Numbered from the stretch's first letter, positions 2,065-59,936 are shown. The stretch is DNA of 64,000 bases from Candidatus Krumholzibacteriota bacterium (GCA_963764625.1 CAVXTH010000006.1:96001-160000); one strand, 5' to 3'. Notes: a model not told the origin generated them from the letters alone. Translations and numbers: made by a program.

Positions 2065-3241
2065 CGCGGGGGCCGTCCCCGTCATTGCCCTGGGGGGCTA
2101 CATCACGGTGCTGGGCGCGATTCGCTGCCTGGGCGCGGCTGGGGTTCAAAGCTTCTGCGCCACCGAAGTCGAATCCTACATCGAGCATTCCCGCTTCTAC
2201 CACGAACTTCCCTCGTCCGAGGGGGTCCTGTGTGATCCTGCGGATCTTCCGCGCTTCTTGGAGGCTCTCTCGATTCCCCGTGCGGTGCTCATGCCGTGCG
2301 CGGACGACTGGGTGATGGCGGTGGCGCGGCTCTCTCCCGTGCTCGCCGAACGATTCCCCGCGAGCGCTCCTTCCCTGGAAGTTCTCTCTGATCTTCTGGA
2401 CAAGTCGAGGCTCGAGACCCTGCTCGACCGCTTCGCGGTTCAGCGCCCGAGGACGCACCCCTTACCCGGGCGGCAATCGCTCGAAGAGGTGGATTGGTCC
2501 CCGGGAGTCTCCTGGTTTCTCAAGCCGGCGGACTCGCAGAGTTTCCGCCGCCGATTCGGGGTCAAGGCCTTTCGGGTCGCCTCGCTGCCGGAGGCACGGA
2601 CCCGCTGGGACGAAATCCACGACGCGGGTCTGGAAGTGGTGCTACAGGAATACGTGGCCGGGCCCGCCAGCAATCACTTTTTCGTCGATGGGTTTGTCGA
2701 TCGCGAAGGCCAGATCCAAGCCATGTTCGCGCGCCGTCGCGTGCGGATCCATCCTCCGGATTTTGGGGACAGCTCTTCGCTGGTGAGCGTGCCCCTCACC
2801 GAAGTCGCGCCGGCTGCCGAAGCTTGCCGGAGGCTTCTGAGGGGAGTGGGGTACCGGGGGATCTTCTCGGCCGAGTTCAAGCTCGACGCGAAGCAGGGCA
2901 CCTTCAAGCTCATCGAGGTCAACACGAGACCGTGGGCGAACGTCGGTTTTGCCGCCCGCTGTGGGGTCAACGCGCCTCTCATGGCCTACCGCGACGCGCT
3001 GGGAATGAGACTGCCCCGGGTGGAAAGCTACGCGGTCGGGCGCCGCTTCTGCTTCTTCCCCAGTGATTTCTCAGCCTGCCTGAAGCTCCATCACTCCGGA
3101 GAGCTCACGCTGGCTCAATGGTTCCGGACCTGGGTCGGGGCCCAGCCCTCGGTCTTCGCGTGGAACGATCCGCTTCCCGCGGTGAAGCAGGCTCTGGAAC
3201 TGGGGCTCTCGGCCCTCGCCAAGCTCTCCTCCCGAGCCTAG
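2045..3241 (+). CDS. ATP-grasp carboxylate-amine ligase (D-aspartate ligase-like)
   Basis: DK.., FLKPA, LQEYVAG, EFKLD and IEVNTR ATP-grasp motifs. The start is uncertain (GTG 2045 chosen; the ORF is open from 2003). Confidence 0.85.
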   Translation: MPIGQGNAGAVPVIALGGYITVLGAIRCLGAAGVQSFCATEVESYIEHSRFYHELPSSEGVLCDPADLPRFLEALSIPRAVLMPCADDWVMAVARLSPVLAERFPASAPSLEVLSDLLDKSRLETLLDRFAVQRPRTHPLPGRQSLEEVDWSPGVSWFLKPADSQSFRRRFGVKAFRVASLPEARTRWDEIHDAGLEVVLQEYVAGPASNHFFVDGFVDREGQIQAMFARRRVRIHPPDFGDSSSLVSVPLTEVAPAAEACRRLLRGVGYRGIFSAEFKLDAKQGTFKLIEVNTRPWANVGFAARCGVNAPLMAYRDALGMRLPRVESYAVGRRFCFFPSDFSACLKLHHSGELTLAQWFRTWVGAQPSVFAWNDPLPAVKQALELGLSALAKLSSRA

Positions 3242-3299
3242 CCCCTTCCAAGTCTCTTTCTCTGCAGTTTCCTTGCAGATCCCACCATATGGGCCCGAT

Positions 3300-3315
3300 T
3301 GGCTCGCAGCATGCA
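3300..3315 (+). promoter_or_regulatory. Possible sigma54 -24/-12 site (upstream copy)
   Basis: TGGCTCGCAGCATGCA has GG and GC at consensus spacing (TGGCACGNNNNTTGCW). Confidence 0.35.
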
Positions 3316-3445
3316 CGTGGAGATCTCAACGACGCATGAGTCCACGGGGCACGATGCGAAATCATGAGAACGGTTGGGAACGCAGGAACTCCATTCAAGG
3401 GGTCTGATTCCTCGTGCTTCCCGCTTTCGGGGAGCTCGGCGGGGT

Positions 3446-3461
3446 AGGCACGGCTTGTGCA
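3446..3461 (+). promoter_or_regulatory. Probable sigma54 -24/-12 promoter of the minor-pilin operon
   Basis: AGGCACGGCTTGTGCA has GG-N10-GC spacing and lies 60 nt upstream of the first pilin start. Confidence 0.55.
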
Positions 3462-3521
3462 GACCCCGTTGTGTTCTCTCTACTTAGGGCCCTAATCAGC
3501 GGGAAACGAAGAGGTTGAACC

Positions 3522-3941
3522 GTGGAATATCGGACTGATCCAGCAAGAATCGCCCACCGGAATCGTTGGGGCAATCAGCGTGGTTTCACGGTGGTGGAGT
3601 TGATGGCGGCCTTGCTGCTCTTCAGCATCGGACTGGTGGCACTGGCTCGCGTATTGCCGCAGGGAATGGAAGTTCGCGACCGTGGCCGGCGCATGACGGT
3701 AGCCACACAGTTCGCGCGCGGAGAAATTGAAATTCTCCGCAGCCTTCCCTTTTCGGACCCCGATCTTACCGACGGTCTACACGTGGATGACGAGGTCCTG
3801 GTGAACGGAAGATACCGGCGCAGATGGACGGTTCAGAATGACACGCCCATTCCGAACATGATGCGCATCGAAGTCAGAGTCGCGTTTAGCACATCCGAGG
3901 CAGACAGCGAAGCAGTGATCGTCACACAGCGAACCCGATAG
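3522..3941 (+). CDS. Type IV minor pilin, PilV/GspI-like
   Basis: Class III signal QRG|FTVVELM followed by a hydrophobic helix; short globular domain 'YRRRWTV...MMRIEVRV'. Confidence 0.85.
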   Translation: MEYRTDPARIAHRNRWGNQRGFTVVELMAALLLFSIGLVALARVLPQGMEVRDRGRRMTVATQFARGEIEILRSLPFSDPDLTDGLHVDDEVLVNGRYRRRWTVQNDTPIPNMMRIEVRVAFSTSEADSEAVIVTQRTR

Positions 3942-6923
3942 GTGGTGGCACCGATGAAGCACAACTGTGGCACGCAACGCGAGACGCGCTCATGGCTCGA
4001 GCGTAGATTCGCCATTTCGTCCCAGCAAGGATTCTCGCTCGTAGAGCTGGCCGTCACCATGGTAGCGTTTGCCGTGATCATGGTCGTGGCATTCGGCGTC
4101 ATGGGACAGCTCAACCGGGCGGGCATGGGAAACGAGCTCTTCGCTCGCACGCAGGCAGCGGCCCGCGCGGCCAGTGACCAGGTCGAAAAGGACCTTCGCG
4201 CCGCCGGTGTGGACGTCGATTTCAGCCGTGGACAGGAGCGCTTCGTCTATGCGGATGCGTATCAGATCGCGTTCAACGCCGATCTGAGCCCGACGGTCGA
4301 TCCCGATGGCACCGCCGCACCGTCCGCGGTTCACGCGGGCACCGTTCCGGCGCAGCTCGCGGCTCTCTTCACTCCGACCACCACCTACCAGACGGGGGCC
4401 GAGACGATCGTCTACACGCTCGATTCGAATGGTGATGGCACGATCGACGGGGCAGATGAAACAGATGATGCCGAGGAAGATACGCCGAACCCGCACGACA
4501 TGATGCTGTACCGGAGAATGTTCGGTTGGGACGGCACCGCCAACACCATGGAAGAGCGCCAGGTCGCGATCGTGCGCGGTCCAGACGCCAACTCCGATGG
4601 AGAGGTTCCCCAGCCGTTGTTCGCCTACCTCATCGACGACGACGACAACCAGATCACTCCCCCCGTGCTCCATGGCGACACCGATGGCGACGGGGTCCTC
4701 AGCAACGCTGAGATCATGGCGCTCACGCCACTCACGCAAGCCGAGCGCGCGCGTCTGGAGCGCGTGGTCTTGACGGTCACCGGAGAGACGGATCGCGCCG
4801 ATGCGAAAACGCATTCAAACGACGGCTATAATCGCGTCGTGCTCAAGAGCGAGGTCCTGGTGCGGCATGCGCCCCGGACCAGCGGCGTGGTTTACGGAAT
4901 CGTCTTCCAGGATACCGACGGCAATCAGGTGCAGGACCAAGGCGAGGGCGGAATCAGTGGCGTGACGGTACGCTCCAGCTCGGGCACCATCACCCGGACC
5001 GACGCCAATGGAAACTATCGTCTCGTTCTGAACCCCGGCTATCAGACGGTCACGGAGATCGATCCGTCCGGGTACGTGTCCAGCACCACGAACACCTACG
5101 ATCTGGACGTCATTCCTGGGGCGTATTCGCAGCTGAACTTCGGCGACCGCTCCCCGACGGGTTCCGCTTCCGTCCAGGGCACCGTCTTCAGTGACCTGAA
5201 CCAGAACTCCGTGATGGACACGGATGAGACCGGAATCGCGGGCGTCACCGTCTACTCCGACGGCGGCGAACAGGCGGTCACCGACGCGAACGGCGCGTAT
5301 ACGCTGACGGTCCCGGTGGGCAACCGGACCATCACCGAAACCGACTTAAGCGGCTACACCTCGACGACTCCGAATGGCGTCGACATCGTACTCTCCACCG
5401 ACGGACAGGTGGAGGTCGTGAACTACGGCGACTTCCTGCTGCAGGACTCCGGCACGATCGAGGGGTACGTCTACAACGACGACAACCACAATCAGGCGCG
5501 CGACGGCTTCGAGGCGGGAGTCAGCGGCGCCATGATCTATGCTGCCGGTGACAGCGTACAGAGCGACGGGACCGGGTACTTCTCCCTGACCGTCCCCTCC
5601 GGCCACTACGACGTGAGCGAAGTCGATCCTCCCGGGTACACCTCCACGACGCCGAACCTTATTCGCAACCTGCGGGTGGATCCCAACGCCACGATCCAGG
5701 TGAGCTTCGGAGACATCGTGCAGGAGAACGTCGACTTCGACATCATCACCCTGGCGGACACCGAGCGAGCGCTGTCGCTCACCAGCGGGGACGTCCAGGA
5801 GGACAACAAGGGTGACGCCGACCTGGTGCTGGGAACGCGCTCCAGCAGCGGCACGAACAACCTCATCCTGTGGACGAACGAGCGCCGCAATGCCAATACG
5901 CCCAATGGGGCCATCTTCAGCTCGACCCCCAGCGCCACCCGGAACGCGGGGTCGGACGTGATGGCGATGCGCTTGTTCGAGGACGGCGGGAGCCCCTACC
6001 TCGTCCTGGGGCTGAACGGAGCGGGATCTCCCGATATCAGCGTCTGGAGCTTCAACCGTGGCACGCCCGGAAACTCACCCGATAACTGGTACGCCACCAA
6101 CGGCGGCGAATCGGTCCTCGACCTGCAAACTCTCGACTTCTACGGAAGCAGCTCCATCGATCTGGTGGTTGGCGTGAGGAACGCCACGATGTCCGGCTCG
6201 GCGGAACTGTGGAGCGGTCTGGGTGGCGGCCAATTCTCGCGTATCCCGGGCGGAATCATCACCGTGGGCGCCTCTCCTCTAGGTCTGGTGCTCGGAGAGG
6301 CCCAGGCGGCGGTTCTCGCGGATGTCAACGGTGACGGTCGCGATGATTTGATTGTGGGCGCGCGTCAGACGACCAGCATGAGCACGGTAAACGTCTATTT
6401 GCGCTATCCGGATGTCAGTGGAATTCACTTCGAGCCCTACCAGGCCTTTCCGGTGAACGGACTCATCACCGACCTCATCGTCGGCGACATGGTCGACGAC
6501 GACCAGGGTCGGCCGGACATCGTGGTGGCGGCCGAGATCACCCAGACGAACGGTGGCATCGAACTGTGGACGCAGCACGACGACGGTTACTTCGGTATGC
6601 CGACGGGCACCGCCCGTAGCTTCGATGACTTCATGTTCACCGATGGTGCTCCGATCGTGATGGAAATGCTCAAGCTCGACAACGACGTCTTCCCGGATCT
6701 CTTGATCGGTACGAGGACCTCCAATACCTACCAGGGCTACGTCCTGATGGCGTTGGGCTTCGGCTACTTGCCCGCGGAAGCGACCCGGATCACCGACAAC
6801 TTGATCGGCGCGGTGGTGACCATGACGACCAACGACTTCAACAAAGACAACGCGATGGATCTGGCGGTGGGAACGCAGAACGCGGCCACGCAGGGCCAAG
6901 TCGTGATCTTTTATCGCCAGTAG
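3942..6923 (+). CDS. Giant PilW/GspJ-like minor pilin fused to three SdrD-B-like repeats and an FG-GAP beta-propeller
   Basis: QQG|FSLVELAV prepilin motif; 'QVEKDLRAAG' PilW-like helix; three 'G.V(F/Y).D...N...D..E.G(I/V).G....D..G.Y/F' repeats; seven 'D..D...D(L/I)(V/L).G'-type blades. Confidence 0.85.
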   Translation: MVAPMKHNCGTQRETRSWLERRFAISSQQGFSLVELAVTMVAFAVIMVVAFGVMGQLNRAGMGNELFARTQAAARAASDQVEKDLRAAGVDVDFSRGQERFVYADAYQIAFNADLSPTVDPDGTAAPSAVHAGTVPAQLAALFTPTTTYQTGAETIVYTLDSNGDGTIDGADETDDAEEDTPNPHDMMLYRRMFGWDGTANTMEERQVAIVRGPDANSDGEVPQPLFAYLIDDDDNQITPPVLHGDTDGDGVLSNAEIMALTPLTQAERARLERVVLTVTGETDRADAKTHSNDGYNRVVLKSEVLVRHAPRTSGVVYGIVFQDTDGNQVQDQGEGGISGVTVRSSSGTITRTDANGNYRLVLNPGYQTVTEIDPSGYVSSTTNTYDLDVIPGAYSQLNFGDRSPTGSASVQGTVFSDLNQNSVMDTDETGIAGVTVYSDGGEQAVTDANGAYTLTVPVGNRTITETDLSGYTSTTPNGVDIVLSTDGQVEVVNYGDFLLQDSGTIEGYVYNDDNHNQARDGFEAGVSGAMIYAAGDSVQSDGTGYFSLTVPSGHYDVSEVDPPGYTSTTPNLIRNLRVDPNATIQVSFGDIVQENVDFDIITLADTERALSLTSGDVQEDNKGDADLVLGTRSSSGTNNLILWTNERRNANTPNGAIFSSTPSATRNAGSDVMAMRLFEDGGSPYLVLGLNGAGSPDISVWSFNRGTPGNSPDNWYATNGGESVLDLQTLDFYGSSSIDLVVGVRNATMSGSAELWSGLGGGQFSRIPGGIITVGASPLGLVLGEAQAAVLADVNGDGRDDLIVGARQTTSMSTVNVYLRYPDVSGIHFEPYQAFPVNGLITDLIVGDMVDDDQGRPDIVVAAEITQTNGGIELWTQHDDGYFGMPTGTARSFDDFMFTDGAPIVMEMLKLDNDVFPDLLIGTRTSNTYQGYVLMALGFGYLPAEATRITDNLIGAVVTMTTNDFNKDNAMDLAVGTQNAATQGQVVIFYRQ

Positions 6924-6933
6924 GGAGAGTCCA

Positions 6934-8244
6934 ATGGACATCAAGCGGAAGCTAATCTCCTCCGTCACCCGTTCGTCGAGTACTTCTTTGTGGCGCATTC
7001 TGCGCAACGAAGAGGGAATGGCGCTTGCCATCACCATCATCCTGCTCCTGAGTCTGGCGGCGATGGCACTGACCGCGACACTGGTGAGCAGCACCGACCT
7101 TTTGGTGGCGGGCAACCAGCGCACGAATTCCGCAGCGCTGGATGTCGCCGAGGCGGGCGTGGCGGAAGCTCTCAATCGCATGAGCCTCAATCCGGGAAGC
7201 ACGGTTCCGGTGGGTGCCGCCATGGTAGACGCTTCCATCCAGGACCCCACGTTTCCCCCGAATCCCAACTGGAAGGCGCACATCTTCCTGACGCCGATGG
7301 GCTCTTCGCCGGCGGTTCCGGCGGGTGAGTTCAGCACCGGGACGGTGCAACAAGCCGGAGACTATCTGAAGTACTCCGACCCCAGCGATCCCAACGAAGC
7401 GGTTCTGATCGAGCACAAGCTGCGCGACTTCAATGGCGATGGAAACGACGAAGTGGTGCTCTACGATCCAGGCCAGGTACCGCCAGAAAATCCCAACACG
7501 GGATCGCCGGTGGAAGTCATAACCGTGACGGGACACAAGGGAACCGCCAAGCGCTCGGTGCAGGTGGAGGCCATCCGCTTTCCCATTCACCCCAACGTCA
7601 CCGCCGCATTGAGCGCCAACGGATCGGTGGATCTGCGCGGTAACGTGACGGTATGCGGTCACAACCATCGCCTTGATACGCCTCGAGGCACCCAGCTTCC
7701 CTCGTGTTCGCCGAATTGGGACGAGACGACGGGGCACTTGCCCGCCGTCATGACCACCGGCTATGCGGTGGGGACGCGCGGTTCGACCGACCTCTTGGGA
7801 AGTCCCGCGGTCACCGATACCTCTTCCACGAACCACTTCTACAGCCTCTCGGAGGCGCTCGGCCTCACGCAGTCCGAGCTCAACGACATCCTCGCCAGTC
7901 CCGATCAGACCAGCGACAACGAGGCGGGTCCCTACGAGGGGATCACCTACATCCAGGGTGACGCCCAGTTCAATGGTACCGATGGCGAGGGACTGCTCTA
8001 CGTGACGGGTGACCTGACCCTGAGCGGAAACTTCAGCTGGGTGGGCTTGGTCTACGTGGAGGGAACCCTGCGCAATACCGGCAACACCTGGATCCTGGGC
8101 GGGGTGATGGCCGAAGGCGATCTACACGTCGCGGTGGACTTCGGAGCGGGAACGCCGGCCATTCTCTACAGTCAACAAGCTCTGACGCAGGCTCTGACCC
8201 GCTCCATGCGCTACGTGACCTTGGGGTGGAAGGAGCTGGACTGA
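6934..8244 (+). CDS. PilX/GspK-like minor pilin with C-terminal beta-solenoid-like region
   Basis: EEG|MALAITIILLL (no Glu5, typical of PilX); 'ALDVAEAGVAEA' PilX N-terminal motif; repeated 'G.LYV.G.L..SG' segments. Confidence 0.8.
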   Translation: MDIKRKLISSVTRSSSTSLWRILRNEEGMALAITIILLLSLAAMALTATLVSSTDLLVAGNQRTNSAALDVAEAGVAEALNRMSLNPGSTVPVGAAMVDASIQDPTFPPNPNWKAHIFLTPMGSSPAVPAGEFSTGTVQQAGDYLKYSDPSDPNEAVLIEHKLRDFNGDGNDEVVLYDPGQVPPENPNTGSPVEVITVTGHKGTAKRSVQVEAIRFPIHPNVTAALSANGSVDLRGNVTVCGHNHRLDTPRGTQLPSCSPNWDETTGHLPAVMTTGYAVGTRGSTDLLGSPAVTDTSSTNHFYSLSEALGLTQSELNDILASPDQTSDNEAGPYEGITYIQGDAQFNGTDGEGLLYVTGDLTLSGNFSWVGLVYVEGTLRNTGNTWILGGVMAEGDLHVAVDFGAGTPAILYSQQALTQALTRSMRYVTLGWKELD

Positions 8245-8762
8245 TGCTGACGAGCCGACAATTCACACACCGGAACGCGAGCGCGCCTCGCGGCTTTACT
8301 CTCGTTGAGTTGATGGTCGCCATGGTAGTGATGGGGATCGCACTGACCTTCACCATCCCCACGCTCGCTCGCAGCGCCCAGATGCACAAGCTGCGGAGTG
8401 CGGCTTCGGAAGTCCAGACCGCGTTCGCCAGAGCGCGCTCCACCGCCGTCACCCATAAAGCCACTGTACGCCTGGACTTCTTCGGAGGAGGGAGTCAGTT
8501 ATACATCGTGCGCGAGGACAAGGACAACGACGGCGTGTACGACAGCTGGACCGGGGGAGGGCATATTCCCAACGGAGTGCAGATCACCAACCTCGATTTC
8601 GGCGGCAACAACTTCGTGAGCTTTGCTCCCAGCGGGACCCCGTCGGTCGGAGGATCGATCATCCTGGGCGCCGCGAGCCAGCAGCGCGAGATTCGGCTCG
8701 CCCCCGGCAGCGGGGCGGCGACCATTTCCGAGCCCGCGGGGACCCAAACCGCCATGAACTGA
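8244..8762 (+). CDS. FimT/FimU/GspH-like minor pilin
   Basis: PRG|FTLVELMVAMVVMGI; 'ARARSTAV' and 'VSFAPSG' GspH/FimT motifs; ATG overlaps the PilX stop. Confidence 0.85.
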   Translation: MLTSRQFTHRNASAPRGFTLVELMVAMVVMGIALTFTIPTLARSAQMHKLRSAASEVQTAFARARSTAVTHKATVRLDFFGGGSQLYIVREDKDNDGVYDSWTGGGHIPNGVQITNLDFGGNNFVSFAPSGTPSVGGSIILGAASQQREIRLAPGSGAATISEPAGTQTAMN

Positions 8763-8852
8763 CTCCGGCGGGATGGGAACGCTATCCCCGGGGCCTCACA
8801 GTACTTGTAATTTACAACTATTTCAGGCTCGAAGAACCTAGGACGCGGGGAC

Positions 8853-9347
8853 TCAGCCCCGCGATTCGGGCTCCTGCGCCGCGTTCTTGCGCGTGCTCCG
8901 CTGGCGGTCCACCCAGCGTTGGGTCGCTTGTGCGAGCTGGCGGAGCCCCTCGACCGCATCCTCGCGCCGTTCGCCGGGGAGCAGGGCCAGGATTTCTCGG
9001 CAGGAGGCGCGGATCCGGCTTTCGAGTTCTTGAAACTGTTCCTCCCCGGCGGGCGTGAGCTGGACCTCGACGCGTCGGCGGTCCTGCTTGGCTGGCTGCC
9101 GAACCGCTAAGTTCTTTTTTTCCAAGCCGTCCACCACGCGGGTCAAGGTGCTCTGCGTCAGCCGTAACTCTTCGGCCAGGACCTTCATGCCCGCCGAGCC
9201 GAGCTCCCACAGGGTTTGCATCAGGTTCCATTGGCTCAGGCTGAGACCGGCCTCGGCGCAGAAGAAACGATCCCGCGCTGTCCCGCCCTGCGCAAGGATC
9301 CGTCCCTCGTGAAGAAGGCGACCGCTGAGTCGAAAACTCGAAATCAT
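8853..9347 (-). CDS. MarR-family transcriptional regulator
   Basis: LSLSQ..., LAEELRLTQSTLTRVVDGLEKK and DRRRVEVQLTPAG winged-helix motifs. Confidence 0.92.
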   Translation of the reverse strand: MISSFRLSGRLLHEGRILAQGGTARDRFFCAEAGLSLSQWNLMQTLWELGSAGMKVLAEELRLTQSTLTRVVDGLEKKNLAVRQPAKQDRRRVEVQLTPAGEEQFQELESRIRASCREILALLPGERREDAVEGLRQLAQATQRWVDRQRSTRKNAAQEPESRG

Positions 9348-9364
9348 GATTTCTCCAACTCTTT

Positions 9365-9389
9365 CGTAGATACAACTATTGTATCTACG
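9365..9389. promoter_or_regulatory. Perfect inverted repeat, probable MarR autoregulatory operator
   Basis: CGTAGATACAA-CTA-TTGTATCTACG: AT-rich 11-bp arms, ~17 nt upstream of the marR start. Confidence 0.7.
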
Positions 9390-9445
9390 TAACTGGTAAG
9401 TTCAAGGAATTATTTCCTCTGGAGCGCTTTCTCACTGGAGGTATC

Positions 9446-9473
9446 TTGACAGCGGAATCCGAAGCGGTACACT
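9446..9473 (+). promoter_or_regulatory. sigma70-type promoter for tRNA-Thr
   Basis: TTGACA-N16-TACACT. Confidence 0.65.
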
Positions 9474-9535
9474 TCACCTCGGCGACACCATGATGCAGAA
9501 ATGGCATCGGGCTTCCGTCTTCCAAGTCGCATCGA

Positions 9536-14457: not shown

Positions 14458-15095
14458 AGCCGCTGACCGGGCGATTCCTCGCTCTGATCGTGGGCTTGCA
14501 GTGTATTCTCGTACCCTCCTGGGCTCGGGCATGGGACGATCCTCTGGCCGGGGCCAATGCGGTGGCTCGCGAAGACTCGACCCACGCCGCTCCTGTCCCA
14601 TCCCCCCTCGATCTGGGAAACGGTCCGGTCTACCCGCCCGTCGATGCCGCGGCGGTCGACACCACTCGCTTCGAGGCCCGTTCCACGACCGCGGCGGTCC
14701 TGATGTCCGTTCCCCTCCCCGGCTGGGGCCAGTTCTACGGAGACGCCCCCTTCTGGGGCGTGGTCGCCTTCGGCGCGCAGATGTGGTTCTACGGGAACAT
14801 CGCGATGCAGCTGCGGCGACAGGAGCGCCAGCGTGTGGCCCGTGACCAGGCTCCCTTGGGAAGCGCGGAGCGTGAGGTGCGCGACGCCCTGGTGACCGAG
14901 CATTCCGAACGCGCCCGCGATTTCATCTGGTGGGCGGCTGGGTCGCTCCTCTTGGTCTCGTTGGATGCCTACGTCAGCGTTCAGCTGGTCGATTTCGACT
15001 CGCCCATCCCGCCGACTCCCGACCTCGAGCGCGGTCTCGGCGCGGAGCTCGATCATGGCGGGGTGGTCGCCCTGACCTTACAATTGCCCTTCTAA
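14454..15095 (+). CDS. Exported/membrane protein, DUF5683-like
   Basis: Signal peptide; '[15 protein letters not shown]' and '[13 protein letters not shown]' motifs. Confidence 0.7.
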
Positions 15096-15130
15096 GAGGG
15101 TCACCGCCACTCGCTCACGTGTCGAATTCC

Positions 15131-16931
15131 ATGCAACAGAGTCAAATACGAAATTTCTGCATCATCGCGCACATCGACCACGGGAAGTCGACTCTGGCCG
15201 ACCGTATCCTCGAACTCACCCATTCGGTGGCGGCCAAGGACATGCGCGCACAGCTCCTCGACTCGATGGACATCGAACAGGAGCGAGGCATCACCATCAA
15301 GAGCCATCCGGTGCGAATGGAATATCGTTCGCGCGAGGGACAAAATATCGTCTTCCATCTCATCGACACGCCGGGACACGTCGACTTCCACCACGAAGTC
15401 AGCCGCAGTCTCGCCGCGTGCGAGGGCTGCCTGCTGGTGGTCGATGCGGTGCAGGGAGTGCAGGCACAGACCATCAACAACCTCTATCTGGCCTTGGAGC
15501 ACGACCTCGCCATCATCCCCGTCATCAACAAGATTGATCTTCCAGCCGCGCGTCCCGACGAGATCAAGGAGCAGATCACCGATCTCATCGGTTGCGAGGA
15601 GGAAGAGATCGCCCTGGTCAGCGCCAAGAGTGGGGAGGGCGTCGAGGAATTGCTCGAGAGGATCATCAGGCTGATTCCGCCTCCACAAGGGAAGCGGGAG
15701 GCGCCGCTGCGCGCGCTGGTCTTCGACAGTCAGTTCGACGCCTACCGGGGAACCATCGCCTACGTGCGCGTCGTCGACGGTGGCGTGACCAAGGGCGATA
15801 CCATCAAGATGATGGGTGGGGGTCAAGTTCACGAAGTGATGGAGACCGGCTACTTCAAGCTCCAGCAGATTCCCACCGACAAGCTCGAGGCGGGCATGGT
15901 GGGATATCGTTGCGACGGGAGCCAAGAGCGTATCGGCCGTGCGGATGGGAGATACCATCACCCACATGGAGAAGCCGGCCGCCGAACCAGTCTTGGGATA
16001 CGTTGAAGCACGTCCCATGGTCTTCAGCGGATTCTATCCCATCGTCAGCGACGACTACGATTTGCTGAAGGACTCGCTGGAGAAGCTTCAGCTCAACGAT
16101 GCGGCCCTGACCTTCGAGCCGGAAACCAGCGCCGCGCTGGGATTTGGATTTCGCTGCGGGTTTCTGGGGCTCCTGCACATGGAAATCGTGCAGGAGAGGC
16201 TCGAGCGCGAGTACAATCTGAATCTCATCGCGACCTTGCCGAACGTAGAGTACAAGTGCCTTCTCAAGTCGGGGAAGGAACTCACGATCGAGAACCCCAG
16301 TATCATGCCTCAGCCCCAAGAGCTCGAGGAAATGTCCGAGCCCTACGTCAAGGCCTCGATCATCGTTCCCAAGGAGTACGTGGGGGCGGTCATGAAGCTC
16401 ACTCAGGATCGGCGGGGGGAACAGGATTCGATGGCGTATCTGAGCGGGGACAGGGTCGAACTCCAATACCGGATGCCGCTGGCGGAGCTCGTGGTCGATT
16501 TCTACGACAAACTCAAGAGCGTAACTCGAGGGTATGCCAGCCTTGACTACGAGCTATGGGAGTATAAGGTCAGCGATCTGGTGAAACTGGATATCATGCT
16601 CAACGGCGAGCCGGTGGATGCACTCAGCGTGATCGTCCACCGCAGCAAGGCCTACGAGTTCGGGAGATCGCTCTGCGTCAAGTTGAAGGAGCTGATTCCG
16701 CGCCAGCTCTTCGCGGTCGCGGTTCAGGCGGCGCTGGGGAGTCGGGTGATCGCACGGACGACGGTGAAGGCGCTTCGCAAGAACGTCACCGCCAAGTGCT
16801 ACGGCGGCGACATCTCGCGTAAACGCAAGTTGCTGGAGAAACAGAAGGAAGGAAAGAAGCGCATGAAGCAGGTGGGCAGCGTGGAGATTCCTCAGGAGGC
16901 CTTTCTGGCAGTGCTCAAGGTGGAACGGTGA
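15131..16931 (+). CDS. lepA: Elongation factor 4 (LepA), split by a frameshift at ~15908
   Basis: [21 protein letters not shown]-terminus in one frame; [29 protein letters not shown]-terminus in the next frame. Confidence 0.95.
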
Positions 16932-44368: not shown

Positions 44369-45076
44369 TTGAAATTGCCGAGCTTTTCCCGGATACTCCT
44401 CAAGCTGAGCGGTGAAATCCTGCGCGAGGGCGAGAATGCCTTCGCGCCGGAGTGTATGGAGCCCTTGGCGGACGCCATTGCCCGCGTGCACGCAAATGGC
44501 GTGCAGGTGGGAATCGTGGTCGGCGGGGGAAATCTCCTGCGGGGACGTAGCGTCCCGGCGGAGCTCTCGCGCGCCGACGCGGATCAGGCGGGCATGCTCG
44601 CGACGATCCTCAACACGGCGATGCTCCGGTTTCATCTGGAGGCCAAGCGCGTGCCGTGCCGGGTCTTCTCGCCGCGCGCGGTGGAACCCGTTTCCGAGGC
44701 CTTCCATCGTGCACGTGCTCTTTCCGCCATGGAGGCAGGCGAGGTGCTGCTCCTGGGGGGAGGGACCGGCAACCCCTTCTTCTCCACCGATTCGGCGGCC
44801 GCCCTGCGCGCGATCGAGCTGGAGTGCGAGATCGTGCTGAAGGGAACGCTGGTGGACGGGGTCTACGACGACGATCCCCATCGCAACCCCCAAGCCAAGC
44901 GCTTCGACCAGCTCAGCTTCGACGAGGTGATCCGGCGCGATCTGAGAGTGATGGACCAGACCGCCATTGCCCTCTGCCGGGATCACGGGATGAAAATCAT
45001 GGTCTTCGACATCACCGACGCGCAGAATCTGGTCTCGGTGGTGGAAGGAAAGCTCAGAGGCACCGTGATCGGCTGA
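44369..45076 (+). CDS. pyrH: Uridylate kinase
   Basis: LLKLSGE, VGGGN, GTGNPFFSTD, VDGVYDDDP. Confidence 0.96.
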   Translation: MKLPSFSRILLKLSGEILREGENAFAPECMEPLADAIARVHANGVQVGIVVGGGNLLRGRSVPAELSRADADQAGMLATILNTAMLRFHLEAKRVPCRVFSPRAVEPVSEAFHRARALSAMEAGEVLLLGGGTGNPFFSTDSAAALRAIELECEIVLKGTLVDGVYDDDPHRNPQAKRFDQLSFDEVIRRDLRVMDQTAIALCRDHGMKIMVFDITDAQNLVSVVEGKLRGTVIG

Positions 45077-45117
45077 GCATCGGTCGGGCGGGCCATTCGG
45101 CTCCGAGGAGGGCTTCG

Positions 45118-45675
45118 ATGCTGGACGAGATTTACAACGATCTACAAGAACGCATGGACAAGACCCTGGAGGCGCTGCGGCGCGAGCTGGGTCATCTGCG
45201 CACAGGGAAGGCAACCCCCAAACTCCTCGACGGCGTGGTGGTGGAGGCCTACGGATCGAAGATGCCGCTCAACCAGCTCGCCTCCATCGGCGCGCCCGAG
45301 CCGCGACTCTTGACGATCCAACCCTTCGACCACTCGCAACTGGGCGCCATCGAGAAGGCTCTGTTGGCGAGCGACCTCGGCATTACTCCCAACAACGACG
45401 GCAGCCTCATTCGTCTGCCCATTCCCGCGCTCAACGAGGAGCGCCGTCGCGAGTACGTCAAGCTGGCCAAGAAGTACAGCGAGGAGGCCAAAGTGGCGCT
45501 GCGCAACGTGCGGCGCGACGGCAACGACAAGATCAAGAAGGCCGAGGGCGACAGCGATCTCACCAAGGACGAAGCCCACCGCGGCCAAGATCAAGTCCAA
45601 AAGCTCACCGACGAGTACGTGGCCAAAGTCGACGAAATCCTCGCCGCCAAAGAGACGGAGATCATGGAGGTTTGA
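45118..45675 (+). CDS. frr: Ribosome recycling factor
   Basis: LRTGKA.P, AYGS..PLNQLA, PALNEERR, RNVRRD. Confidence 0.97.
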   Translation: MLDEIYNDLQERMDKTLEALRRELGHLRTGKATPKLLDGVVVEAYGSKMPLNQLASIGAPEPRLLTIQPFDHSQLGAIEKALLASDLGITPNNDGSLIRLPIPALNEERRREYVKLAKKYSEEAKVALRNVRRDGNDKIKKAEGDSDLTKDEAHRGQDQVQKLTDEYVAKVDEILAAKETEIMEV

Positions 45676-50718: not shown

Positions 50719-50848
50719 GGTTGTCCTCATCTGCGGTTGGAACCTATAACAGCGGAAGGACTTTGGCTACTAACTGGTCGAATCGCAAGCATCAGGTCGT
50801 CGGGAGCAAGGGAAGGTCTTGGACGCCTCGCGTCGAAATCATCTTCGG

Positions 50849-52876
50849 ATGAACGCTCTCTCACTCATGGCCGCTCTCCTGCTGTTGAGTGTGGGCCTTC
50901 GTGTCGCCCGGGCGGACGACGAGCTCGACTATGGGCTCGAACAGAGACTGGTCGCCTCGATCACCATCGACGGCGCGGAGAGTTTCGAGGACAGCCGCAT
51001 CAAGGACCTCCTGCCCTTCGGCGAACCGCACTGGTACATGCTCCTGAGCTCTCCTCACTACACCGAGGATCTCCTGCTGCTCGGTGTCGATGCCGTGCGC
51101 AGCTTCTATCGCGCGCAGGGGTTTCACTCCGTCACCGTGGATGGCGAAGCGACGGACCGTGATTCGCGCCACGGTGACAAGATCGCGATTCACATCGTGG
51201 AAGGCCCGCGAACGCTCATCTCCAGCATTCGATTCACTGGCAATTCGCCACTGGACGAAGACGAGCTGAGCTCGCGCCTGGTGCATCCAGCCGGTAGCCC
51301 GGCGCCCTTCGTGAAGTCCGCCTACGGTCGCGACGTCTACGCGCTGCGCTCGGCGCACTTGGCCCGAGGCTTTCTCGGCACCAAGATCCAGTTCGACATG
51401 GACGAAAACGAAGATAAGGTCGCACTCACCTTCCACATCGATACCGGGCCCGCCTACCACATCGAGCGAATCGACGTGGAGGGGAACAGAGAGGTGAGGG
51501 GAGAGCTGATTCGCCGCGAGTTCCGGTTTGCGCCGGGCGACATCTTCGATCTGGAGAAGATCGTGCGAACTGAATCGGATTTGCTGGAAACCGGGTGGTT
51601 TCGCGACGTCGGGTTCACTCCGGTCGACTTGGACACTCTGGCCAGCACCTGTGCCCTGAACCTTCACGTGGTGGAAAGGAACAGCGGCTACTACGAAGTC
51701 GGTGTCGGCGCGGGCGACAATTCTCAACTCAGGCTCACCGCCGCCTGGGGTGACCGGAATTTCTTCCGCAGCGGCAAGGGGCTCAACGCGAGAGTTCGGC
51801 TCCTGTGGGGTCTGGAGGACATACTCGACATCGACCGGCGCATCGTATTCGACCACCGGGAAGAGCTCAACTACGTGCACCGAAGGCTCTTCGGAAGCCG
51901 CTACACGATGACGCTCAGCGGCTTCTTCGACCGGCAGAGCAGAGGCTCCTCGGGAGTCGCGGTGGAGAAACTGGGTCTGCTGGGGAGCACGACCCTGTGG
52001 CGGTACCGGGCACGCAGTCTCGAGCTGGAGCTCTCCCACGAACGCGTACGCAAAGTCCTGCTGTCGCAGGTGAAGGATCTGAGCCCCGCGGACGGAGTTC
52101 TCCCGCAGGTCCAGACCGGGAATTCCACCACGAATTCAGTTCTTCTGCTCTACACCCGGGACACCCGCAACAGTCTGTTCGAGCCCAGCGATGGAAGTCT
52201 GCGTCAGATTCTATGGCAGACCGCCGGTGGCCCCGTCTTCGCCGGCGACAACTCCTTCCACAAAGCGGTCGCCACCTGGGCCGGATTTTTCGGCCATGAA
52301 GACGGAAGCGTGCTGGCCCTGCGCATGCAGGCGGGCTGGGCCACGCCATGGTACAAGAGCGGCGGCAAAGGGGTCCTCGGCGTTCCTTTGGAAAACCGGT
52401 TCTTCGCCGGCGGTCAGCGCAGCGTACGCGGCTATCGGGAAAACAGTCTGGGGCCCAGGCTCACGCAGCAGGACCAAGAACTGGTCCTGGACGATCGCTT
52501 TCTTCTGAATCACCCGGCCGCGGGCGGAGAAGCATTGCTGGTGCTCAACGCGGAGCTGCGATTGCCCTTCCCTCTGCTTTCGCGTTGGGGCTTCGGACTG
52601 ATCCTCTTTGCCGACGGTGGAAACGTCTGGGAAGACTGGTCGAAGGTGAAGTGGAAGGATTTTCGTCTCGCCTCCGATCCCGAGGGCAGCAGCCCCACCA
52701 CGATCTACGACTTTCGCACTGGAGTGGGATTCGGTTTCTTGTATCACACACCGGTCGGTCCGCTTCGTCTGGAATACGGCCTTCCGCAAAAGCGGGTCAA
52801 ACTGGTCGGCGAAGATGGGTCCACCGAGATCGACCCGCAGCATATCTGGCACTTCAGTCTAGGATTCGCGTTCTAA
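50849..52876 (+). CDS. tamA: Omp85-family outer membrane protein, TamA-like (three POTRA domains + barrel)
   Basis: Signal peptide, POTRA repeats ('I.F.GN', 'I.VEGN'), FFAGG..SVRGY, TPVGPLRL, C-terminal FSLGFAF; followed by TamB. Confidence 0.8.
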   Translation: MNALSLMAALLLLSVGLRVARADDELDYGLEQRLVASITIDGAESFEDSRIKDLLPFGEPHWYMLLSSPHYTEDLLLLGVDAVRSFYRAQGFHSVTVDGEATDRDSRHGDKIAIHIVEGPRTLISSIRFTGNSPLDEDELSSRLVHPAGSPAPFVKSAYGRDVYALRSAHLARGFLGTKIQFDMDENEDKVALTFHIDTGPAYHIERIDVEGNREVRGELIRREFRFAPGDIFDLEKIVRTESDLLETGWFRDVGFTPVDLDTLASTCALNLHVVERNSGYYEVGVGAGDNSQLRLTAAWGDRNFFRSGKGLNARVRLLWGLEDILDIDRRIVFDHREELNYVHRRLFGSRYTMTLSGFFDRQSRGSSGVAVEKLGLLGSTTLWRYRARSLELELSHERVRKVLLSQVKDLSPADGVLPQVQTGNSTTNSVLLLYTRDTRNSLFEPSDGSLRQILWQTAGGPVFAGDNSFHKAVATWAGFFGHEDGSVLALRMQAGWATPWYKSGGKGVLGVPLENRFFAGGQRSVRGYRENSLGPRLTQQDQELVLDDRFLLNHPAAGGEALLVLNAELRLPFPLLSRWGFGLILFADGGNVWEDWSKVKWKDFRLASDPEGSSPTTIYDFRTGVGFGFLYHTPVGPLRLEYGLPQKRVKLVGEDGSTEIDPQHIWHFSLGFAF

Positions 52877-52880
52877 GACC

Positions 52881-55800
52881 ATGTGGGTGAAGACGACACG
52901 GATCACTCTCCTCGTGGCGCTGTTGATCGCGGTGACGGTATTGTCATGGCTGGCCGCGCACCCCAGGCTCTACGCTGGCCACGTTTCCCGGGTCATCACC
53001 CAGAATCTCCTTGGTCAGACCGGCGCCTCCTTTCGCTACGAAAGCCTCGAGGGGAACGTCCTGGGGGGGGACCTACGTCTTTTCGGCGTCGACCTGAGCT
53101 GGCAGGGGTTGGACGGTAGCTTCGCCTACCTGCGGGCGGACACGCTGGAGGTTTCGTACGACCTGACCGATCTGTTCAAGGGCCGCGTGCACTTGTACCG
53201 TCTGGCCATGTTGTCGGCTCATGGCATGATTCGGCGTCGCGAGTTGAGCGAGCCGATGCAGAAGCACCAGCGTTCCGGTCCCGGTTTCCCCACCCTTGCC
53301 ATCGAAGAGGGAATTCTGCGTGGACTCGAACTCCGCATCATCCAAAGCGATGGCACCGAAGACCGACTTGAAAACCTGAGCTGGTGGGGGAGCGTGCGGA
53401 CACGGGACAAGAAACTCGTAGTGGATACCCGTGCGCTCGGCGGGGGCTGGCCCCAGAGGAACCTGTACCTGAAGTCGGTGTGGGGACGCACAGAGGTTTC
53501 CTCGACCGGTATCATGGTGGCGAATCTACGCGTCGCTTCCGACTCCACCCGAGTTCAACTCAACGGAACCTGGAATAAAGAGGATGGTCTCGATGTGCAA
53601 GTCGAGGCGGAGAGCTTGTGTCTGAGTGAGTTCCTGGAAGCTCTGGGGAAGCCTAGTCCGATCCTGGCGGACTTCGCGGGAACTGCGAGGGTCGAAGGTT
53701 TCTCCCCCTTCGAGCTGAGCGGCAAGCTCTCCGGAGTGATCGACCACTACACCTTTTCCGACACCGATTTCGCCCTTACGGTCGATGGATCGGATCTACA
53801 GCTCAGCCGAGCGAGCGGCCTCATCTTCGGTTCCCCGGCCAAGCTGCATGGCACCGTCGATACCAGTACCGGCGACCTATACCTGAGCGGTGAAGTCGAA
53901 AACCTCGACTTGAGCCAACCCTGGACCATCGATGACACCCAATGGCCGAGCTCGGACCTGAGCGGGGACATCGATCTGAGCGTCGCGACGAAGGCTCCGG
54001 TGCGTGTCGACCTGAAGGCCAGCGGGGTAAGAGGGCGAATCGAGGAGCTGCCGGTTGACTCCCTGAGCGGCCGGGTCCATTTCCAAGAGGAGCACGGCAC
54101 GCGGTTCGAGGGAATTCGTGTCCTCACTCACGGCACCTGGATCGCGGGTTCCGCCACTCTCGACTCGCTCAACGTCCTGGATTTTCCCTTTACCGCCCGT
54201 GCTAATGATCTCTCCTCCTGGCGCACCGCCTACCAGCTCCCCTGGGACCATGCGGGGAGCCTGCAGGCCACAGGTACGTTCTTCGGACCCATCGACGCGC
54301 CCACCCTTCAGATCGATGGCGCGCTCGACTCCCTCTCTGGCTTTCGTATGCAGGCAAACAAGCTGCATGGGAGCTTCAAGATCAGCCCCTGGAACGATCT
54401 CGAGACCGTCGACGGACAGATCGAGGCGGCTGATTTCTTCATTGGGGGCGTACGTCTGGGAACCCTGAGGAGCCAATTTCAGCGCCGCTTTCCGATCGTC
54501 GAGGTGCCGCAGCTCGAAGTGGCCGACGGAGATTCCATCCTGAGCTTGAAGGGGAAGGTGGAGGAGAAAGGGAACCGCGCGCTTGTTTCGATCGAGTCGG
54601 CGAGCTTCGACCTGGGCCCGCGGAAATGGACCCTGGCCGAGCCGGGTGAACTCGAGCTCGGAAAGGGCTGGGTGCGCAGCCACGGGCTGAGTGTCCGCTC
54701 CGCCTCGGGAGGCTGGACGGTTCGTGGGGGGGTGGACAGCCTGGGAGTCATGGATCTCCGCGTCGATCTGATGGAGGGCGATCTGGAACTCCTTCCCCAT
54801 CTGGGCCTGGGACCGAGCGATCTGGAGGGCACACTCAACGGCCGCGTGATCGTGGGAGGAAAGCGCGAGAATCCCGAGCTGCACATCGACCTTCGCGGGA
54901 ACCAGCTCAGAGGGTTCGGGCGGCGCCTCGATCGCCTGCGGCTTCTCACTTCCATTTACGGTTCGAAAGTCTCGGTGGATTCGCTTCAGGTGCATTCTCC
55001 GCAGGGGAATCTCTCCCTCACCGGTTCGCTCGATCTGCTACGCGACGACGCGTTGCATTGGCTGGCCAAGCACCCCAAGAGCTGGCGCGAATTCCTGGCC
55101 CCGGCACAACCAAATCTGCAGCTTTCGTGTCAAGATCTGAACAGCCGTTACTGGATGGATCCTCAGGCCAAGGACGAGGATTTCGGCCGTGCCACGGCGG
55201 GACTCTCGATTCGAGGAACGCTCCAGAAGCCGCTAATCCAGGGCGAAACCGAAATCGCCAATCTGGTCACCGGCGGAGGTTCGCTCGTTTTTCCCGCCCT
55301 CCGGTCCCGGGTCGAGTCAGATGGGGAGGATTTGAAGCTCAGCCAGGGAATCATCCTCACCCCGGATCCCTGGCTCCGTTTCAGCGCGAGTCTTCCGCTG
55401 AAACTCTCGGCTGTCGAGGCGCCACAGTGGGGTGGCTCGAAGGGAGCCGAGGTGGAATTGACCTCCGACGGCGAGGTGGAGTTACGGCGCTTGGGGCCCA
55501 TCCTGCCCATGTTGAGCGAGATTTCCGGAAAGGCGGAGCTGCTGTATCGCGCACGCGGTTCGATGGATCATCCCAAGATCGAGGGTTACCTGCGGGTGCA
55601 CGACGGCATCGCGCAGTTGGAAGGCAGCCTAGAGCGGCTTCGCGATGTCGAGATCGATGCTCCCATTCAAGACGGAGTGATGCAAATCCAGAAATTCACC
55701 GCGCGAGAAGGCTTGAAAGGTACGGTGAACGCGACGGGAGAGGTCGACTTCGACGGACTTCTTCCCGATGACATTCAGATGGACATCTCCGCCGATCGAT

Positions 55801-59700: not shown

Positions 59701-59936
59701 GAATTGGAGGGGTGGCCTTCTTCGACTTGGGCAGCGCGTTCGGCTCCGCCTTCAAACCCTTCGGGAAGACCGGTAACGGGAATTTCCGCTTCCAGGACTT
59801 CAAGGCCGACTATGGGCTTGGAATGCGCGTGAACTTCCTCGGCCTCCCCTTCAAGTTCGATTGGGCATGGAAGACTGACTTCGCCCGCACCTATGGAAAC
59901 ATGCAGTTCACCTTCTCGATAGGACCGGAGTTTTAG
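56781..59936 (+). CDS. Zinc peptidase (HExxH) - TolB/PD40 propeller - Omp85-type barrel fusion
   Basis: HELVH and WFAEGAAEY; PAISPDG/PSWSP/PSWMPDG repeats; P/E-rich linker; GGPYTLRGW and C-terminal FTFSIGPEF. Confidence 0.8.
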   Translation: MRTHIRSAIKVMLASAGLLALLSGAALARNKVQYDNFHWQVLSTPHFEIFFYKGEETLAARASVIAEDAYVRLSGVFKHDFQKQIPFILYASPNDFQQTNISDELIGESTGGFSEPLRNRVVLPYPGDNEAFVHVINHELVHVFMFDLAYKSTASGAARRALFPIDLWFAEGAAEYFSTADGWDKTTDMWMRDATIYDWIAPLDKIYSGYQVYREGQAALRYLGLTYGHEKVVEFFKEVGKVRNVDRALEMSIGLNTKDFSAEWEKWLKHSYWPVYQDKKEASRIGRRMTDHAKDHYYFAQQPAISPDGNVIAFFSDREGFVKLFLMDVADKTILSTLATGYRSDRFLSFHSYDSGISFDPQGHRLAVVAKSGGRETLYILRVPDGKILQHIKLPVDIARSPSWSPTENQVVVVGSKDGNTDLLLVDLKTEAVTKLTRDLSSEFSPSWMPDGKSIVYSASPNPVIDVGIQKDTDGGERMTRVDFSNTQNVEQMETSRDLYLLDLKTAKRSRLLSTPGDDSAPVAVDDESVVFVSDASGISNLYHYNLRTKELHRFTDVLTGIFQPSLSRQAGRLAFTAFSNGGYDIFELENLSQYVKEHSYPDPVPPPPVDEDRLSLAANTEPDSTATNPPLTVRDLLSGESVPAEEPEAPAPQEPEGTKENGGEEKPANLGDKPAGTITKYKPRFSLDPLGSGSIGGVYYSSGLGLGFANIISLSDLLGNHRIQFLVNFYGSLKDSDLAASYYYLKRRVNLGFGVFHYKNFFNSNFTTLGEVFDRSRLFSERNYGFFGLASRPFSTFNRLDFEVQAFVADRTFYELDTLSGYYFETSHTKAQLIQPSLSLIHDSAFYGPNGPLTGSRWTLNFSPALPIGRDGLDRVTGFGDYRKYIHFGRGNAIATRFTGAYSNGSDPNAFVLGGPYTLRGWDTFDFEKSVEGDDPLYQNLVGRKMLLMNLEYRFPAIDAVFFGWPGRFGIGGIGGVAFFDLGSAFGSAFKPFGKTGNGNFRFQDFKADYGLGMRVNFLGLPFKFDWAWKTDFARTYGNMQFTFSIGPEF

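Follow-up and report, generated by a model that had tools for sequence, protein, structure and literature searches.

Can the tip adhesin of a type IVa pilus (T4aP) be covalently built into one of its own minor pilins? This question is raised by an open reading frame (ORF) in a 64,000-nucleotide stretch of DNA from a Candidatus Krumholzibacteriota bacterium (GCA_963764625.1, CAVXTH010000006.1:96001-160000), which is referred to here as the window. The ORF, located at 3942-6923 on the plus strand, starts with GTG and runs uninterrupted for 993 residues, and we denote its product the giant modular minor pilin, or the giant. Diderm T4a pili are described as being tipped by a non-pilin protein, PilC/PilY1, which is held by a C-terminal plug. 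An earlier note on this DNA had proposed that the tip adhesin is here part of a PilW subunit, and four comparative-genomic lines, which we call independent, support this proposal: the pilin module of the giant is homologous to the subunits of the PilW slot, the module and PilY1 nearly exclude each other among related genomes, the two kinds of gene cassette share one locus in two species of a single genus, and genomes that carry only the giant have no other PilW-type pilin. Based on these four lines, we consider it probable (about 0.7) that the ORF encodes a J/PilW-type modular pilin that carries its own tip head within a PilY1-independent T4aP cassette.

The ORF and its prepilin signal are as the earlier note had described them. 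The GTG start abuts the stop codon of an upstream pilin gene (3522-3941), a possible alternative ATG start lies at residue 5, and the ORF is tightly packed among three pilin-like genes (3522-3941, 6934-8244, and 8226-8762). The predicted leader peptide covers residues 1-30 (3942-4031, plus strand). A class III prepilin signal, QQG/FSLVE, in which the slash marks the predicted cleavage site after G30, occupies residues 28-35, and G30, F31, and E35 are each kept in at least 90% of 67 giant-pilin relatives, and cleavage by a prepilin peptidase is predicted at this position. In Pfam, N_methyl (PF07963) matches residues 26-51 with 22.5 bits against a cut-off of 21.2, and the TIGR02532 model matches with 20.4 bits against a cut-off of 16.3. 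The pilin module that follows (residues 31-318; 4032-4895, plus strand) is about 290 residues long and consists of a predicted α1 helix and a globular domain with two DxDxDG loops, which are kept in 56/67 and 51/67 of the relatives, respectively.

Behind the pilin module lie three SdrD_B/Cna-B-type repeats (4881-5714, plus strand; residues ~314-403, 408-497, and 503-591), which would form a stalk. The three repeats of ~90 residues had been noted before, and they are borne out by Pfam, where SdrD_B (PF17210) matches the giant in three stretches with an E-value of 9.2e-20 and 71.4 bits (cut-off 29.7), and by a comparison of the giant-family profile with solved structures, where SdrD is matched with an E-value of 3.6e-19. 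CarboxypepD_reg also matches in three stretches above its Pfam cut-off, and a DxNxN..D..E motif is present in each repeat. The remaining part of the protein (residues ~596-993; 5727-6923, plus strand) is an FG-GAP repeat domain and may fold into a seven-bladed propeller head. In this part, FG-GAP (PF01839) matches with an E-value of 4.9e-10 and 39.5 bits (cut-off 22.1) and FG-GAP_3 (PF13517) with an E-value of 1.5e-6 and 29.2 bits (cut-off 26.9), while the family profile matches the propellers of integrin alpha-4, alpha-6, alpha-V, alpha-5, and alpha-IIb among the solved structures with E-values from 7e-7 to 1e-3. PF05567, the propeller domain of PilY1, is not matched by the giant at an E-value of 0.1 or lower in Pfam. 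All seven strings quoted as blades in the earlier note are present (at about residues 615, 678, 731, 793, 848, 911, and 964), but only six repeats of the window protein are significant. Blades were counted in 67 family proteins using a repeat model that was started from blade 4 and refined by iteration; seven repeats were found in 57, six in 8, five in 1, and four in 1. In the window protein, a gap of 74 residues (648-720) holds a degenerate blade 2, and the canonical DxDxDGxxD loop of the propeller is found in blade 4 only. It is on such motifs and repeats that the terms adhesin, Ca2+-stiffened, and seven-bladed propeller would rest.

The fusion of a pilin with a stalk and a head could in principle have been an assembly artefact, and this suspicion does not hold. 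Among 110 database matches to the giant, 84 cover at least 80% of its length, with sizes of 847-1067 residues and identities of 27-95%; the few source names given among these matches are Krumholzibacteria/Latescibacterota metagenome-assembled genomes (MAGs). In a phylum set of 208 species genomes (Krumholzibacteriota-type MAGs), in which the module was counted as present at an E-value of 1e-40 or lower, the pilin module was found in 76, and at 45 of these 76 loci the match continues to residue 885 of the giant or beyond. In a search aimed at shorter proteins with residues 1-315, two matches came up; one is labelled partial and the other lies on a 1.9-kb contig, and both are likely to be fragments rather than evidence for a split gene. 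The giant gene carries one frameshift in one genome (G070, locus L116) and two in another (G069, locus L117), where it is otherwise colinear and full-length, and these frameshifts do not fall as a split at a domain border. They may be indel errors or real pseudogenes, and both assemblies consist of few contigs. Genuine stand-alone pilin modules of 313-334 residues do exist in Moduliflexus-type MAGs (L069, L073, and L079). They are flanked by dnaX on one side and a xerC-like integrase gene on the other, a tol-pal cluster follows downstream, and no further pilin genes are nearby. Another apparent stand-alone module, of 308 residues (L058), contains a masked run of X and was dropped as evidence.

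To which position of a minor-pilin set the module belongs was determined by using the PilY1 cassettes of the phylum as a reference. Twenty PilY1 cassettes were fetched and 19 were used as slot references; in 19 of the 20, pilins of ~131, 110, and 182 residues are followed by a ~158-residue protein with a PilX-like N-terminus and then by PilY1. When the four window genes were compared with slots 1-4 of these 19 cassettes by profile-profile alignment in hhalign, each gene matched a slot of its own. The GspH-like protein (8226-8762) matched slot 1 best (99.2%, E 7e-20, 133 columns), the PilV-like protein (3522-3941) slot 2 (99.0%, E 5e-18, 105 columns), the module of the giant (3942-4895) slot 3 (99.3%, E 1.1e-20, 181 columns), and the PilX-like protein (6934-8244) slot 4 (95.7%, E 9e-9, 64 columns). 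The matrix of matches was therefore a diagonal, and off-diagonal matches covered at most 77 columns. With α1 removed, the globular part alone matched slot 3 with 93.4% (E 2.6e-7, 109 columns) and the other slots with 0.1-4.7%, and a reciprocal search using the slot-3 profile as the query returned the giant. Within its own genome, the best paralogue of the module stands in third place among the pilins of the PilY1 cassette. In the listed PilY1-bearing genomes that have both on one contig, the best match to the module precedes the PilY1 propeller by ~2.4-2.6 kb, with both on one strand. Considering the slot diagonal, the α1-free match, the paralogue, and the position upstream of PilY1, the module is, by homology, a subunit of the J/PilW slot that has grown through insertions and a 680-residue extension at its C-terminus, and in this form the PilW-like N-terminal domain of the earlier note stands. 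A search of PDB sequences with the module profile matched α1 helices only, including that of Thermus TTHA1219 over positions 8-73.

The genome from which the window is taken (G000; 3.57 Mb, 9 contigs, 96% complete) was also searched for pilus genes elsewhere, which the earlier note had left to be checked, and both a T4aP machine and a complete PilY1 cassette were found. The single machine is located at C6:528-547 kb and comprises PilB, PilT, PilC, two small pilins, PilD, PilM, PilN, and an AMIN-type PilQ, and the genome has one secretin and one GspF/PilC platform protein. The PilY1 cassette (L003, C6:82.6-89.6 kb) holds four small pilins, a 918-residue PilY1 with vWA and PF05567 domains, and two further ORFs. 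PilY1 is thus a separate gene here (C6:85478-88234), and its cassette lies about 7-13 kb upstream of the window and 11 kb upstream of the cassette of the giant. The PilY1 proteins of the phylum match PilY1 of Pseudomonas aeruginosa with an E-value of 2e-71.

Across the 208 genomes, the module is present in 76 and PilY1 in 84, and the two occur together in only three (G000, G020, and G207); the module alone is carried by 73 genomes and PilY1 alone by 81. Family by family, the counts are as follows. In families f2, f3, f5, and f6 the module is present in 6/7, 7/12, 38/43, and 8/8 genomes, respectively, and PilY1 in 0/7, 0/12, 0/43, and 0/8; in family f7 the module is present in 0/91 and PilY1 in 64/91, and in family f8 the module is found in 5/23 and PilY1 in 12/23. 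Within a single genus, g69, five genomes carry the module and six carry PilY1, with zero overlap. A secretin is present in 188 of the 208 genomes, the PilY1-less families included. Using the slot-3 profile, a full-length small slot-3 pilin was found in 84 genomes, only three of which carry the giant, and in the giant-only genomes the profile finds the giant itself or nothing. As judged from this search, the otherwise intact machine of the giant-only genomes has no PilW-type subunit to draw on except the giant.

These distributions also bear on whether the giant is a pilin in function. It may be that the giant is never polymerised. Its prepilin-like N-terminus would then anchor a propeller protein in the membrane or direct its export, and this protein, on the cell surface or in the periplasm, could for example be a lectin, an enzyme, or a sensor. 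Propellers of the FG-GAP/VCBS type and SdrD_B stalks are often found in surface proteins outside pili, which make up most of 4522 database matches, and the location of the giant on a pilus is a prediction. However, the module is conserved over its full length, including the globular part that is homologous to slot-3 pilins, the gene always sits within an H-I-J-K cassette, and the giant-only genomes keep their secretin yet have no other PilW-type subunit. We therefore regard an unpolymerised giant as unlikely, although it is the alternative that fares best.

The exchange of the giant for PilY1 can be followed at a common chromosomal site. In genus g69, the flanks of the giant and PilY1 cassettes are colinear, with 55-87% identity in tblastx. 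In one genome of this genus (G193), pilQ is followed by a GspH-type gene, a PilV-type gene, the giant with N_methyl, three SdrD_B, and FG-GAP matches, a 420-residue PilX_N protein, and an rsmD-like gene; in another (G187), the order is pilQ, four small pilins, a 744-residue PilY1, an Ig-domain protein, and the rsmD-like gene. The cassette of the giant lies directly downstream of pilQ in four g69 genomes. In the genus of the window, two sister genomes (G024 and G026) share ~40 kb of colinear sequence with G000 but miss exactly the 7-kb PilY1 cassette, and a third (G027) has a PilY1 cassette at another site and lacks the giant.

The same pilin carrier bears different heads in different lineages. 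In five Acidobacteriota MAGs (L060, L062, L070, L071, and L074), the module is fused to propellers of the BNR/Sortilin-Vps10/PSII_BNR type in proteins of 1017-1110 residues, and the cassette has the order H, pilin, giant, and PilX_N. A second cassette class, represented by L112, L113, and L115 (genomes G054, G038, and G005), has a giant of 1055-1065 residues that shows one SdrD_B match and ends in ..GWNIDDVVV.., with a C-terminal domain that has no Pfam match, and a PilX-like protein of 449-450 residues. This class was found in 32 genomes, 11 of which also carry the FG-GAP class, and an Edwardsbacteria MAG has the module in a fused form of 1059 residues. FG-GAP repeats are also recorded at the N-terminus of some PilY1 proteins, as the architecture IPR013517-IPR013517-IPR008707 in 7 proteins (PMC8179133, Dataset S2). 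Such variety of heads on one module is the pattern that would be expected of exchangeable ligand-binding modules.

Whether the head binds an external ligand at all may be questioned, as it could instead sense Ca2+ or mechanical stimuli, or act as a cap that primes or stabilises and has no such ligand, rather than being an adhesin for surfaces or prey. PilY1 has Ca2+-dependent and mechanosensory roles, and the two conserved DxDxDG loops of the module, together with the Ca2+-type motifs of the stalk repeats, would fit a sensor. On the other hand, one module carries heads that differ by lineage, being of the FG-GAP type, of the BNR/Sortilin type, or of a third class with ~1060 residues, and FG-GAP and vWA modules are also described in adhesive N-termini of PilY1 proteins (PMC8179133), so that a head with a sensing or capping function alone appears improbable.

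For the tip adhesin that we favour, the following mechanism can be proposed. The region 3522-8762 would be a four-gene minor-pilin cassette of a T4aP that supplies the H/FimU, I/PilV, J/PilW, and K/PilX subunits. PilD would cut the leader of the giant after G30, and the pilin module, taken up into the priming complex of the one T4aP machine together with the PilV-type (I) and PilX-type (K) subunits, would thereby reach the pilus tip. The C-terminal 680 residues would then project from the tip, with the three Cna-B-like SdrD_B domains holding the propeller away from it and Ca2+ probably loading the stalk and the loops of the module. The FG-GAP propeller would bind a surface ligand, and retraction by PilT would pull on it. 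Such a cassette could work without PilY1, the adhesive head being covalently part of the PilW-type subunit, and the enlarged K/PilX-type subunit may carry in cis the strand that is otherwise donated in trans by PilY1. That the cassette would instead serve a pseudopilus like that of the type II secretion system (T2SS), or another type IV filament, with the giant staying periplasmic or at the pore, is the least probable of the alternatives: the T2SS too has an H-I-J-K set of four subunits, the slot-1 protein is best named as GspH in Pfam, and two further T2SSE-type ATPases are encoded in the genome (C6:575523 and C1:20905), but the sole secretin and the sole GspF/PilC platform protein lie in the pilB-pilT-pilC-pilD-pilMN-pilQ locus with its AMIN-type PilQ, and the cassette of the giant follows pilQ directly in four g69 genomes and replaces the PilY1 cassette at the same locus.

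The possibility of a strand supplied in cis is raised by the PilX-like neighbour of the giant. According to Ellison et al. 2026 (PMC13533445) and a preprint (10.64898/2026.09.18.752573), the last ~10-12 residues of PilY1 add a strand to PilK, which holds PilC/PilY1 and stabilises PilK/PilX, and PilY1-less systems such as GspK of the T2SS and CpaL supply this strand in cis. In the PilY1 cassettes of the phylum, the slot-4 protein has ~158 residues and ends in ..SRLFKEGY; in the cassettes of the giant it has 420-450 residues. The enlarged PilX-like proteins end in ..M-P-C-[VI]-V-L-[SGA]-W-[KR]-E-x, with the W in 35/35 aligned rows, and a C-terminal W-[KR]-[ED] is present in 36/40 loci plus the window. 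PilY1 of the phylum has ..L-x-V-R-S-W-Q-E-N-[FY]-D near its end in 19/19 aligned rows, from which L090 and L092 had been left out, their C-termini being not alignable. In an Acidobacteriota locus (L071), the giant is followed by a 754-residue PilX_N protein with a near-end motif ..IEIRAWKEE.. and the C-terminus ..IEIRAWKEEVADQ, and the PilX-like protein of the second cassette class shows the same feature, ..EKIAWNEIDP.., at its C-terminus. Of 16,560 ORFs, 3 fit a regular expression that was adapted post hoc to both families; besides PilY1 and the PilX-like protein, a deoxynucleoside kinase that is unrelated to them is among these. The bare 4-mer is found close to the C-terminus in 21 of the 16,560 ORFs, and a position-specific scoring matrix (PSSM) made from PilY1 alone ranks the PilX-like ORF 1251st.

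Joining the swap, the heads, and this C-terminus, one may picture that the two jobs of PilY1 are split between two subunits, with the head on the PilW-type subunit and the plug strand in cis on the enlarged PilX-type subunit. The whole cassette would be exchanged with the PilY1 cassette at one chromosomal site, and its carrier would have taken on unrelated propellers (FG-GAP and BNR/Sortilin) in different phyla. We put this forward tentatively, at somewhat less than even odds.

Several observations weigh against a tip adhesin in the PilW position and should be set beside the evidence above. The Pfam PilW model (PF16074) does not match the giant even at an E-value of 10. However, PF16074 has matches in 0/208 phylum genomes and in no control genome, so that its miss on the giant is uninformative. 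The genome of the window carries a PilY1 cassette as well, and the giant pilin would here be an alternative tip and not a replacement. Neither the module nor PilY1 is present in 51 of the 208 genomes. The exclusion between the two was counted on related genomes, which overstates its independence; the few switches that can be named lie within g1, within g69, and between families. For the strand in cis, the PilY1-only PSSM places the 10-mer of the window protein in the top 19.5% of W-centred windows, with a family median in the top 4.2%, and an hhalign comparison of the PilX-like protein with the C-terminal region of PilY1 gives 0.06%, with no wider homology. Since the regular expression was fitted post hoc, the bare 4-mer occurs in 21 ORFs, the likeness is a short motif that is not significant under the PilY1-only PSSM, and wider homology was not found, the C-terminal likeness is a lead for an in-cis plug and not a finding, and it is only suggestive. 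Furthermore, passage of a ~100-kDa subunit through the secretin is assumed by analogy with PilY1, and a pilin fold, a closed propeller, and I-J-K contacts are all putative.

The genes around the giant can be described as equivalents of the other slots. The upstream gene (3522-3941, plus strand) encodes a 139-residue PilV/GspI-type minor pilin, equivalent to slot 2, which matches N_methyl in Pfam with 29.9 bits and the NCBIfam PilV model TIGR02523 with an E-value of 5.6e-6, below the cut-off of that model; a PilV-type gene stands beside the giant at 57/76 related loci. Downstream, an enlarged PilX/K-type minor pilin of 436 residues that ends in ...YVTLGWKELD is encoded at 6934-8244 (plus strand) and is equivalent to slot 4. 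PilX_N of Pfam matches it with an E-value of 5.6e-4, below the cut-off, and matches its L086 orthologue above the cut-off. Based on language-model features, this protein scores 0.98 to PilX_N clusters of 397-446 residues, and a PilX-type gene is present at 45/76 giant loci with 40-47% identity. A profile of the PilX-like family found no match among PDB sequences. The last gene of the cassette, a 178-residue ORF at 8226-8762 (plus strand), encodes a GspH/FimU-type minor pilin equivalent to slot 1, with N_methyl at residues 22-42 (31.8 bits) and a Pfam GspH match of 37 bits. A GspH-type gene is found at 48/76 giant loci, mostly upstream of the PilV-type gene, and the order GspH-type, PilV-type, giant, and PilX-type is seen in most of 33 single-ORF loci (36 examined) and also in L086; L004, L005, and L013 share with the window an H gene placed after the K gene. 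In a promoter and terminator scan of 3100-9500, nothing within the operon scored above shuffled controls. Short contigs on all four cassette genes, with 0-4 differences, were recovered from four salt-marsh metatranscriptome runs, which is weak evidence, as carry-over of DNA is possible. A gene for a MarR-family regulator (8856-9347, minus strand) converges on the end of the pilin cassette.

Other genes in the window showed some features of their own. The lepA gene is split over two overlapping ORFs within 14930-16928 (plus strand), one at 14930-16003 with GTP_EFTU and one at 15939-16928 with EFG_C and LepA_C, which suggests a frameshift or a sequencing error in this housekeeping gene. A ribosome-recycling-factor (RRF) ORF of 339 residues is located at 44656-45672 (plus strand), and its RRF domain covers only residues 174-337; the N-terminal extension of ~170 residues sits at the usual place of pyrH, after tsf, and may be a fused or frameshifted pyrH or an over-long ORF call. 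A 1051-residue Omp85-family protein with PD40 (WD40-like propeller) repeats ahead of its barrel is encoded at 56781-59933 (plus strand), where it immediately follows bamA (50819-52873) and then a TamB-like gene (52881-56744).

Among known systems, the giant resembles modular pilins most directly in its layout. With an N-terminal IPR012902 and a domain not specific to pilus biology behind it, it belongs to the modular pilins as they are defined by Raynaud et al. 2021. PilB (with vWA) and PilC (with a lectin) of Streptococcus sanguinis likewise place a functional module behind an N-terminal pilin module, with a proposed location at the tip and ligand binding (PMC8179133; PMC10191384). As described, however, these two proteins belong to a monoderm T4aP without a PilHIJK set and without PilY1, whereas the organism of the giant is a diderm with a PilQ secretin and a full H-I-J-K set, in which the giant fills the J/PilW slot, and one and the same locus can hold either the cassette of the giant or a PilY1 cassette. 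The heads also differ, being an FG-GAP propeller on a three-domain stalk in the giant and a vWA or lectin module in S. sanguinis. CofB of the type IVb pilus of enterotoxigenic Escherichia coli and ComZ of Thermus are likewise large minor pilins that combine a pilin fold with bulky β-rich domains and are proposed to sit at the tip (PMC8179133); compared by description only, they differ from the giant in pilus class and slot and are presented in that source without a propeller. The two C-terminal modules of the giant come from the same sequence families as the B-repeat stalk of SdrD and the FG-GAP propeller of integrin alpha, but SdrD is a sortase-anchored Gram-positive adhesin and integrin alpha a metazoan receptor, and neither is fused to a pilin.

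The comparison with PilC/PilY1 (PF05567; P. aeruginosa PilY1, PDB 3HX6) concerns function rather than descent. Like the giant, PilC/PilY1 has ~900-1000 residues, a β-propeller, and Ca2+-type loops, and is encoded with the four core minor pilins. PilC/PilY1 is displayed at the tip, and the distribution of the giant and the swap at the locus point to the same job. The giant differs in that its propeller is of the FG-GAP type and forms a C-terminal, outward head, it has no PF05567 domain, and it would be attached by its own pilin helix, whereas PilY1 is attached by a C-terminal plug strand. As such, the giant is a functional analogue of PilY1 and not a member of its family. In GspK/XcpX, CpaL, and MshQ, a terminal β-strand is provided in cis or comes from another large protein (Ellison et al. 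2026, PMC13533445; preprint 10.64898/2026.09.18.752573). An enlarged K-type subunit in PilY1-less cassettes is a shared feature, the PilX-like protein of the window having 436 residues versus ~158 in PilY1 cassettes, and its conserved C-terminal ..L-[SGA]-W-[KR]-E is reminiscent of ..V-R-S-W-Q-E in the PilY1 proteins of the phylum, but the strand is only putative here, unlike in GspK/XcpX, CpaL, and MshQ.

How new the architecture is can be stated in two parts. The earlier note had taken it to be new to any characterised system, and it is indeed uncharacterised, but the domain string had already been listed: Dataset S1 of Raynaud et al. 2021 (PMC8179133) contains IPR012902-IPR033764-IPR013517 in 3 proteins and IPR012902-IPR033764x3-IPR013517 in 1 protein among 264 architectures, where the proteins appear without further study. 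A literature search, incomplete for subscription journals and bioRxiv supplements, returned no PilW-slot pilin with an FG-GAP head and no swap between PilY1 and a modular pilin. Modular pilins are thus an established concept, while a J/PilW-slot modular pilin in a diderm H-I-J-K set and its alternation with PilY1 were not found in print.

Taken all together, the cassette points to a second way in which pili of the Gram-negative type may arm their tip. Both solutions are present in one diderm phylum; a single genus can have the two at one locus, and a single genome can have them next to each other. This amounts to a natural swap experiment. The swap identifies the J/PilW slot as the subunit able to carry the head and predicts a self-sufficient K/PilX subunit, and dozens of sequence pairs are available for testing the plug model. 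A stalk and propeller displayed on a pilin could also serve engineered pilus display. The giant is moreover a concrete candidate for attachment to surfaces or prey, both in Acidobacteriota and in the Krumholzibacteriota/Latescibacterota group, which is uncultured.

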